Numbered from the stretch's first letter, positions 50,012 through 51,669 are shown. The stretch is 64,000 bases of DNA from Minisyncoccota bacterium (GCA_022842585.1 JALHPI010000001.1:2298-66297), one strand, 5' to 3'. The notes: a model not told the origin generated them from the sequence alone. Program-made: numbers and translations.

Positions 50012-51651
50012 AGGAGGTGCAATGCGCTCTTGTGTTCCGCCTATTCGCATCTGTTAAAGCGTCAATTGAGCGCTTCAACATCTACATCGGGATACGTTAT
50101 CCGACATCCGAGTGGTGTTTAGGGACATCCACTAACTCCCTACTCTAAAAGAGTAATCGACATTGGTATGCCTTTCGGGCGATACCGGTTCCAATTGGAT
50201 ATGTTCCACGAGCAGCTTCCGCTACCCGTGCCTTGTTACGACTTACTCCCTGTCATTGAATTTGCCGTAGTCCTGCAAAAAGCAAGATATCGGGCACCTC
50301 CAACTTCCTTGAGTTGACGGGCGGTGAGTACAAGACTCGAGAACGTATTCACCGTAGTATGGCTGACCTACGATTACTAGGGATTCCGGCTTCAAGAGGT
50401 CGTTGCAGACCTCTATCCGTACTGAGGACGGTTTTTGGGATTTGCTCCACCTTACGGTATTGCTTCCTTCTGTACCGACCATTGTATCACGTGTGCAGCC
50501 CAAGGCATCAAGGGACATGCTGATCTGGCGTCATCCTCACCTTCCTCCCCCGTGAGGGGGCAGTCTCGCCTGACATAAGTAACAGACAACGAGGGTTGCG
50601 TTCGTTACCCCACTGAAGGGAACAGCTCAAGCCACGAACTGACGACGACCATGCATCACCTGCCAAACACCCTCGAAGGATTCCTCCGTTTCTGGAGGCG
50701 TGCAGTTTGGTTTCTAGCCTTGGTAAGGTTCTTCGCTTGTCGACGAATTAAGCCACATGATCCACCGCTTGTGCGAGTCCCCGTCTATTCCTTTGAGTTT
50801 TAATCTTGCGATCGTACTACCCAGGCGGCTCGCTTACCGCGTTAGCTTAGTCTCACAGAGGGTCGATACTCCGTAAAACGAGCGAGCAACGTTTAGGGCT
50901 AGGACTACCGGGGTATCTAATCCCGTTCGCTACCCTAGCTTTCGTGTGTGAGCGTCAGATTTGGGCCAGTGCGCTGCCTTCGCCTTTGGTGTTCCCCACG
51001 ATATCAACGGATTTCACCCCTACACCGTGAGTTCCACGCACCTCTCCCAACCTCAAGTCGTACCGTTTCGCTTGCGCGCCGTAGGTTGAGCCCACGGATT
51101 TTACAAACGACTAATACGACCGCCTCGACACCCTTTACGCCCAGTGATTCCGGATAATGCTTGGGGCCTCTGTATTACCGCTCCTGCTGGCACAGAGTTA
51201 GGAGCCCCTTATTCATGTGGTACTGTCAATAATTTCATCCCACATAAAAGATGTTTACGTGCCGAAGCACTTCGTCCATCACGCGACGTCGCTCCGTCAG
51301 GCTTTCGCCCATTGCGGAAGATTCTCGACTGCGGCCTCCCGTAGGAGTATGGGCCGTGTCTCAGTCCCATCGGTGGGGGTCAGCCTCTCAGCTCCCCTAA
51401 ACGTCGTAGCCTTGGTAGGCCATTACCCTACCAACTAGCTGATATTGCGCACGCCGCTCCCGAAGCGATAAATCTTTAACCTTGCGGTACCATCCGGGAT
51501 TACCTCACCTTTCGGTAAGCTATACCAGACTTCGGGGTGCGTTCGTACGTGTTACTACCTCGTCTGCCGGTTGCCTTGCGGCCCCCTTGACTTGCATGCC
51601 TTATCCACGTCGCCAGCATTCATCCTGAGCTAGGATCAAACTCTCATTAAG
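50012..51651 (-). rRNA. rrs: 16S rRNA gene, with an apparent ~170-nt insertion between helix 45 and the anti-SD tail. The 3' boundary is uncertain; it could be about 50195 if the insertion/trailer is not part of the mature rRNA.
   Basis: 27F-site homolog at 51625-51644 (AGAGTTTGATCCTAGCTCAG). A 515F-region variant GTGCCAGCAGGAGCGGTAATAC at about 51172-51193. 1492R-site homolog (AAGTCGTAACAAGG) at 50231-50244. h45 with a GGAA loop at about 50200-50226. CACCUCCUUA at 50012-50021. Confidence 0.85.
50030..50048. repeat. 3' arm of the 19-bp leader/trailer complementarity (partner 51651-51669), 8 nt upstream of CACCUCCUUA in rRNA sense
   Basis: See partner feature. Confidence 0.7.
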
Positions 51652-51669
51652 AATAGGCGGAACACAAGA
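51651..51669. repeat. 5' arm of a 19-bp perfect leader/trailer complementarity flanking the 16S gene. The partner is at 50030-50048. Candidate RNase III processing stem.
   Basis: The plus strand at 51651-51669 (GAATAGGCGGAACACAAGA) is the exact reverse complement of the plus strand at 50030-50048. Confidence 0.7.

Follow-up and report, generated by a model that had tools for sequence, protein, structure and literature searches.

In the rrn operons of Escherichia coli and in Bacillus subtilis, the leader and trailer of pre-16S rRNA pair to form stems that are cut by RNase III, and we know of no studied system in which such leader-trailer helices are anything other than processing devices. In the CPR, rRNA genes are reportedly rich in insertions, IVSs and introns, as described by Brown et al. 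in 2015. Such insertions break up conserved rRNA and turn up in some relatives but not in others; many of them are group I/II introns or code for homing endonucleases, and RNase III is presumed to excise the short IVSs (PMC11270868). As to the 16S 3' end, Tsurumaki et al. (2022, PMC9297842) report an anti-SD motif for only 48% of Parcubacteria. On rRNA processing stems in Patescibacteria, our literature search returned nothing relevant.

Here we describe the 16S rRNA (rrs) unit in a stretch of 64,000 nucleotides (64 kb, the window) from a bacterium of the Minisyncoccota; coordinates are positions in the whole window, and the unit is read on its minus strand. An earlier note on this DNA had drawn attention to a 19-bp complementarity that brackets the 16S gene and had placed the 3' arm of the resulting stem upstream of the anti-SD. 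We consider it quite likely that these 19 bp are the inner portion of a longer leader-trailer helix, of about 41 bp in all, that closes a monocistronic pre-16S rRNA in a member of the Paceibacteria (Parcubacteria, CPR). Like the stems of E. coli and B. subtilis, it is a long helix made of 16S flanks, is accompanied by a boxA-like leader element, has its strands outside 16S by homology and shows covariation. It differs from these in being asymmetric, with a 5' strand flush with 16S and about 150 nt of conserved, structured RNA before the 3' strand, and in belonging to a monocistronic unit with a terminator-like hairpin rather than to one that runs on into tRNA and 23S.

With CPR IVSs and introns the locus has in common that extra structured RNA sits beside conserved rRNA in a CPR genome; in contrast to these, the segment begins only once the last conserved 16S position has passed, occurs in all relatives with the same tail and matches no intron family. 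It resembles the subgroup of Parcubacteria described as anti-SD-less in that GGAACAUAUCCAAU replaces GGAUCACCUCCUUU and in that its relatives are labelled Paceibacterota, Taylorbacteria, Kaiserbacteria or Parcubacteria group, but what the accessible part of that report (PMC9297842) covers is the absence of the motif alone, to which the window adds the helix, the trailer, the lack of an SD signal and -10-like boxes close to gene starts.

As an element the stem is of an ordinary type, though not previously described for this lineage, and the only residue of novelty, a mild one, is the conserved structured trailer. To our minds, the main value of the analysis is a correction: a 170-nt insertion between the 16S body and its anti-SD would, if true, have been a striking find, but this appearance dissolves on comparison with relatives. 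What is documented is the rrs precursor layout of an uncultured, anti-SD-less clade of Paceibacteria - monocistronic, with a long covarying helix and a conserved structured trailer - and this offers a concrete target for work on rRNA maturation and translation initiation in the CPR.

The rrs unit and its leader-trailer helix

The 16S gene spans 50194-51651 (minus strand), where Rfam RF00177 matches over model positions 1-1533 with 1354.7 bits. Upstream of its leader lies a promoter-like site, TTGACG-17-TAGTAT (51761-51789, -), a match from a consensus scan only and one of a kind whose count is not above shuffled expectation. The leader holds a GC-rich hairpin, CGCCCCCAUGUGGGGGUGGG (51734-51753, -; stem-loop scan and sequence), and a boxA-like element, GCUCUUUGACAA (51711-51722, -; read from the sequence), which we liken to GCUCUUUAACAA, the boxA of E. 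coli rrn; a leader hairpin directly before a boxA-like element resembles the boxB-boxA order of rrn leaders. At the other end, the sequence contains a terminator-like hairpin, AAAAGCCCCC-GUAU-GGGGGCUUUU (49969-49992, -), as the end of the rrs transcription unit. Most relatives have a GC-rich hairpin and a U run at the same place, and a stricter terminator scan did not call the hairpin at 49969-49992. Further on come a second terminator (49886-49912) and then tRNA-Ile (49565-49640, -; Rfam scan), followed by protein genes. No 23S gene was found anywhere in the 64-kb window, the 16S gene being unlinked from 23S. Taken as a whole, the rrs unit appears to be monocistronic, with its own terminator-like hairpin.

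A repeat search returned a single perfect 19-nt inverted repeat, 50028-50046 (TCTTGTGTTCCGCCTATTC on the plus strand) with 51651-51669, and a 20th pair, U(51670)-G(50027), lengthens the inner helix. When 49850-51800 was shuffled 300 times, non-overlapping inverted repeats grew to 9-14 nt at the longest and never came to 19 nt. The complementarity seen in the earlier note is real and its 5' arm was exact, but the 3' arm had been placed 2 nt off, at 50030-50048 rather than at 50028-50046. With 19 Watson-Crick pairs and one G-U, the inner 5' arm (51651-51670, -) is flush with the 16S 5' end: in the Rfam alignment to the bacterial SSU model its last base, 51651, falls on position 1, and the arm abuts UUAAUGAGAGUUUGAUCC. 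A gap of some 5 nt had been assumed before UUAAUGAGAG; the arm adjoins UUAAUGAGAG directly. Its partner, the 3' arm GAAUAGGCGGAACACAAGAG (50027-50046, -; repeat search and fold), is followed downstream by GCGCAUUG, then by CACCUCCUUA (50019-50010) and then by the terminator-like hairpin. Both arms are outside 16S as delimited by homology (Rfam 1-1533 at 51651-50194; arms at 51651-51670 and 50027-50046).

When leader and trailer are folded together, as the earlier note had proposed, the inner helix extends into a 41-pair structure (-53 kcal/mol, z = -9.8), and one relative (L149) has the same leader-trailer fold. The outer helix is made of a 5' strand at 51673-51700 (-), which reads ACCAAAA..AAGG.AGG...GCAAGUG, and a 3' strand at 50003-50026 (-), so that leader GUG, GCAA, AGG, AAGG and ACCAAAA face trailer CGC, UUGC, CCU, CCUU and UUUUGGU.

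Relatives came from two sources, a scan for the h45 signature in one genome per species (120 loci) and a metagenome scan for h45 and then GGAAC (120 further loci). The best 16S matches of the genome scan are MAGs labelled Paceibacterota, Taylorbacteria, Kaiserbacteria and Parcubacteria group, at 81-84% identity, and the closest relatives by 16S are L236 (93.1%), L172 (92.6%) and L147 (91.0%). The window's tail, GGAACAUAUCC, is common to 50 distinct sequences, all of which carry the 3' arm GAAUAGGCGGAACA(A/C)AAGAG about 160 nt beyond h45. Leader sequence exists for eight relatives with this tail, and in all eight the 5' arm UUCUU(U/G)UGUUCCGCCUAUUC is flush with the 16S 5' end. Where the window pairs CUUGUG with CACAAG, most relatives pair CUUUUG with CAAAAG, a compensatory change. 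Among more distant anti-SD-less Paceibacteria the core CUUGUUCCG/CGGAACAAG persists and its flanks differ (GUUCAUCU/AGAUGAAAC; UCUUAUCC/GGAUAAGA).

Covariation was quantified in 14 distinct leader/trailer pairs, selected for having a complementary anchor of 6 nt and for forming 17 or more of 26 pairs. In these, pairing is seen in 89.6% of cells - a percentage inflated because the set was picked via its complementary anchor - as against 48-55% with partners slid by 1-3 columns, and 20 of the 26 helix pairs show changes on both sides; the anchor-based choice bears less on the slid control and on the two-sided changes than on the paired percentage. None of 500 shuffles attained the observed covariation values. 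As 14 distinct relatives preserve the helix with compensatory changes, the "processing stem" reading holds. In this respect the earlier note was borne out in its suggestion of a leader-trailer stem of the processing type, which now comprises about 41 bp, and the comparison with relatives that it had called for shows the two arms to co-vary.

In five of the distant anti-SD-less Paceibacteria (L036, L066, L032, L068, L042), an additional 35-70 nt of leader separates the helix arm from the 16S 5' end. Further leader-trailer pairings occur in this distant group, for example GAUCGUAG/CUACGAUC in L036. From such comparison of sequences, the flush arm of the window's own sub-lineage looks derived.

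How the precursor matures may be sketched by analogy with textbook processing in E. coli and B. subtilis. Transcription would start near 51753, driven from the promoter-like site, and would proceed through the boxA-like leader, the helix 5' strand, 16S, the trailer of about 150 nt and the helix 3' strand to end at the terminator-like hairpin. The ends of the pre-16S rRNA would then fold together as the 41-bp helix, and an RNase III-type, double-strand-specific endonuclease would cut this helix to yield pre-16S. Other nucleases might remove the few remaining 5' nucleotides as well as the structured trailer, with a hairpin at the junction of tail and trailer possibly guiding the removal of the latter. 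Homology would place the mature 16S ends at 51651 and 50194. No signature motif of RNase III (rnc) was found within the 64-kb window, which covers part of the genome only. Among the points against our main reading is the stretch of about 150 nt between the 16S end and the 3' arm, which is longer and better conserved than is usual for a discarded spacer.

The structured 3' trailer

The segment between 16S and the 3' arm, an insertion to the earlier note, is by alignment and consensus fold a 3' trailer (50047-50193, -), about 150 nt long, conserved and structured. It is composed of a tail hairpin, a hairpin with a GAAA loop, the motif AUGUCGAU, a variable hairpin, an AGUGG/CCACU helix and two further hairpins, one whose loop AUAACGUA is invariant and a long terminal one with the loop CUCAAUUGA. 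RNAalifold on 22 relatives predicts 39 trailer pairs, and compensatory changes are seen in 25 of these. The trailer is present in each of the 50 distinct relatives that share the window's tail and is about as conserved as 16S itself: BLAST alignments continue through it at 85-93% identity. Conservation equal to that of 16S is odd for an RNA that is thrown away. A covariance model of the trailer (R1) finds it as a single copy in the window (157.5 bits) and, among the 120 genome loci, hits anti-SD-less ones only, strongly in L011, L103, L025 and L014, weakly in L065, L070, L108, L073 and L066.

One element reaches beyond this group. GUCGA(U), within AUGUCGAU (50140-50147, -), lies 45-60 nt past h45 in nearly all Patescibacteria loci, including those that keep the anti-SD. 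We considered pairing between GUCGA and the unusual h31 loop GUCGAC and rejected it: across loci GUCGA is constant while the h31 loop varies (ACGCAAC, UCGACAA, UCGGUAA), hence there is no covariation. Expansions of 60-110 nt are present inside trailer hairpins of L204, L224, L130 and L222, several of them with repeats (CUGGAGG, CAGAAG); the hairpin tips therefore tolerate insertions. A few short ORFs (63-69 aa) overlap the trailer segment, whose mode of evolution is that of a structured RNA.

Between 49400 and 51900, Rfam families at E values up to 10 were confined to 16S, tRNA and sub-threshold noise, with no intron family among them. An identity of the segment as an intron or IVS was rejected on the grounds that it matches no intron family and is present in all same-tail relatives rather than sporadically. 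Nor does it have the flanks of such elements: the sequence that follows it is unconserved in relatives, and the 16S model is complete before it begins.

Leader-trailer helices serve processing in every studied system, as textbooks have it, and we find it unlikely that here the helix and the trailer are instead kept on the mature rRNA as a terminal expansion that clamps its ends, or that the trailer, once set free, persists as a stable functional RNA. A released trailer RNA may have a role in, for example, 30S assembly where Era-like factors are absent, and most CPR are without Era, the binder of GAUCACCUCC, according to a review (PMC10582724). A lasting RNA of either kind would suit a conservation close to that of 16S (85-93% in BLAST), helices supported by covariation, invariant loops such as AUAACGUA, recognisable trailers in anti-SD-less loci only and, in this sub-lineage, a 5' arm flush with the 16S 5' end. 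Yet distant members combine the same helix core with 35-70 nt of extra leader, to which a structure of the precursor alone is the better fit, and the outer helix evolves fast, unlike rRNA proper. We are similarly doubtful of the further proposal that the trailer is a functional module which arose or became fixed with the loss of the anti-SD and which is either retained, clamped to the 5' end, or acts as a stable 30S-assembly RNA. A processing helix of the precursor is the reading we prefer.

The 16S 3' end and the anti-SD-like decamer

Helix h45 of the window reads CACGGGUAGC-GGAA-GCUGCUCGUG and is directly followed by GGAACAUAUCCAAU. In the Rfam alignment, in which Infernal sets GGAACAUAUCCAAU against model GGAUcACCUCCUUu with high posterior probability, this degenerate 3' tail (50194-50207, -) is the in-place homologue of GGAUCACCUCCUUU. 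As GGAACAUAUCCAAU aligns to the anti-SD positions, these are present though degenerate, and nothing is missing from 16S at this point. The tail after h45 has no CCUCC; the sole CCUCC lies 175 nt past the tail and is paired with the leader. Close relatives all have this tail or one much like it and are without CCUCC after h45 (GGAAUGAUUCAA.., GGAUUAAUUCAAUUG..), and other CPR loci in the same genome scan have GGAUCACCUCCUUUCUAGGGAG there. The anti-SD is lost in this lineage, and such loss is already on record for about half of the Parcubacteria (PMC9297842).

Several claims of the earlier note fall with this alignment. The 3' arm of the stem is not placed 5' of the anti-SD, whose positions Rfam puts at GGAACAUAUCCAAU right after h45; the roughly 170 nt are no insertion into 16S but a conserved trailer in every relative with the same tail; and a non-canonical maturation of the 3' end is not supported, the 16S model being complete before the trailer. 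The note had reckoned that its view would fail if both arms lay outside the rRNA and the anti-SD came from a different sequence. By homology both arms do lie outside, but no other sequence supplies an anti-SD, the lineage being without one.

The last bases of the tail and the first of the trailer make a hairpin (50185-50200, UCCAAUUGGA) that covaries across clades. Loci that retain the anti-SD build its stem from CUCCUU/AGGGAG, and loci that have lost the anti-SD build it from UCCA/UGGA, UUCA/UGAA or UUAA/UUAA; a stem of at least 4 bp can form in 82% of 203 distinct loci, compared with 51% of shuffles. It is plausible that this tail hairpin is a determinant of the 3' cut.

An exact CACCUCCUUA does lie 8 nt beyond the 3' arm, as stated in the earlier note (50019-50010; AGGAGG of the plus strand at 50012), and a 10/10 match to the canonical 3' end is improbable by chance in random sequence, a point against our main reading. 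In the fold, an SD-like run in the leader, AAGG-U-AGG, faces this decamer, and given that CCUCCUU pairs with AAGG-U-AGG, CACCUCCUUA (50010-50019) belongs to the 3' strand of the outer helix. BLAST homology to the closest relatives (L172, L236) ends at query 1674-1675, that is at 50026-50027, just past the inner arm. Beyond this point, L141, L147 and L224 have unrelated outer sequences, each pairing with its own leader, and in the divergent members, the window included, cognate duplexes are much the more stable: -21.0 kcal/mol for the window's own outer duplex versus -5.7 to -10.7 with the trailers of relatives, and -18.8 for that of L141 versus -6.1 to -14.0 for non-cognate ones.

Most relatives have GAAAAGAUGUG / CACAUCUUUUC at the place of the outer helix, and the decamer occurs in none of 43 distinct relatives, those of 92-93% identity included. 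Across the 43 distinct post-arm sequences, CACCUCCUU is matched 9/9 by the window alone and 8/9 by two. The relatives' consensus CACAUCUUUUC is itself anti-SD-like, which likewise counts against the main reading, with at least 7/9 matches in 37% of relatives as opposed to 9% of shuffles, an excess partly due to phylogenetic non-independence. We read the decamer as a lineage-specific, non-conserved state of a fast-covarying, pyrimidine-rich helix strand, and it would have no role in translation, the strand happening to spell an anti-SD in this genome only. That it is a displaced anti-SD was rejected: the Rfam alignment of the 3' end, the lack of conservation, the pairing with the leader and the statistics on SD motifs all speak against it. 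We think it unlikely that the paired CACCUCCUUA/AAGGUAGG of this one genome is a relic or a mimic of the SD:anti-SD duplex.

It is very improbable that some 170 nt came to be inserted between h45 and a still functional anti-SD, so that the stem would lie within 16S and the inserted element would either be spliced out, with the anti-SD re-joined, or cost the rRNA its anti-SD on cleavage. Such a view could draw on the exact CACCUCCUUA 8 nt past the 3' arm, on the structured nature of the segment between h45 and decamer and on the many insertions for which CPR rRNA genes are known (PMC11270868). However, the tail right after h45 is already aligned to the anti-SD positions; what would be the downstream exon is unconserved, with the decamer in 0 of 43 distinct relatives; the segment is found in every same-tail relative, unlike the sporadic insertions of CPR; no intron family matches at E values up to 10; the decamer is fully paired with the leader; and gene starts show no enrichment of SD motifs. 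That the repeat arose by chance, or marks the termini of some mobile or repeated element that has nothing to do with rRNA processing, is scarcely credible: nothing more than the bare existence of an inverted repeat speaks for it, while shuffles yield 14 nt at most, the arms are conserved and covary in relatives, they flank 16S precisely, and the trailer they enclose is single-copy in the window.

Gene starts in the window and the 16S '515' region

Gene starts were taken from 61 non-overlapping ORFs of at least 100 aa by a simple ORF rule, which renders the SD statistics approximate. SD 5-mers are found at -20 to -3 of 6 of these 61 starts when 4.1 would be expected and control windows range from 0 to 8, which amounts to no SD enrichment. 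Boxes of the -10 type, TA[TG][AC]NT, by contrast with their expectation of 1.4, precede 12 of the 61 starts at -18 to -5. Examples (TATACT, TATAGT, TAGAAT) stand before the minus-strand starts at 11027, 12665, 17490, 26612, 42526 and 49381. Judged from these sequence signals, this suggests that mRNAs of this anti-SD-less bacterium are mostly leaderless or have very short leaders. A literature search found nothing on leaderless mRNAs in Parcubacteria and nothing relevant on Shine-Dalgarno sequences in Patescibacteria.

Near-perfect SD motifs, AAGGAGGUG (44900-44908, +) and AAAGGAGG (51865-51872, +), do occur before two short plus-strand ORFs. The ORFs, starting at 44915 and 51880, encode 169 and 108 aa, respectively, and lack a convincing Pfam family, so they provide no evidence for SD use. 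AGGAGG occurs 45 times in the window, which makes two SD-like placements before ORFs unremarkable. One of the two ORFs adjoins the promoter-like site of rrs and is divergent from it.

Within the 16S gene, the '515' region (~51170-51195, -) reads GUGCCAGCAGGAGCGGUAAUAC, as against CAGCMGCCGCGG in the universal primer site; given this difference, standard amplicon primers would probably miss the organism.
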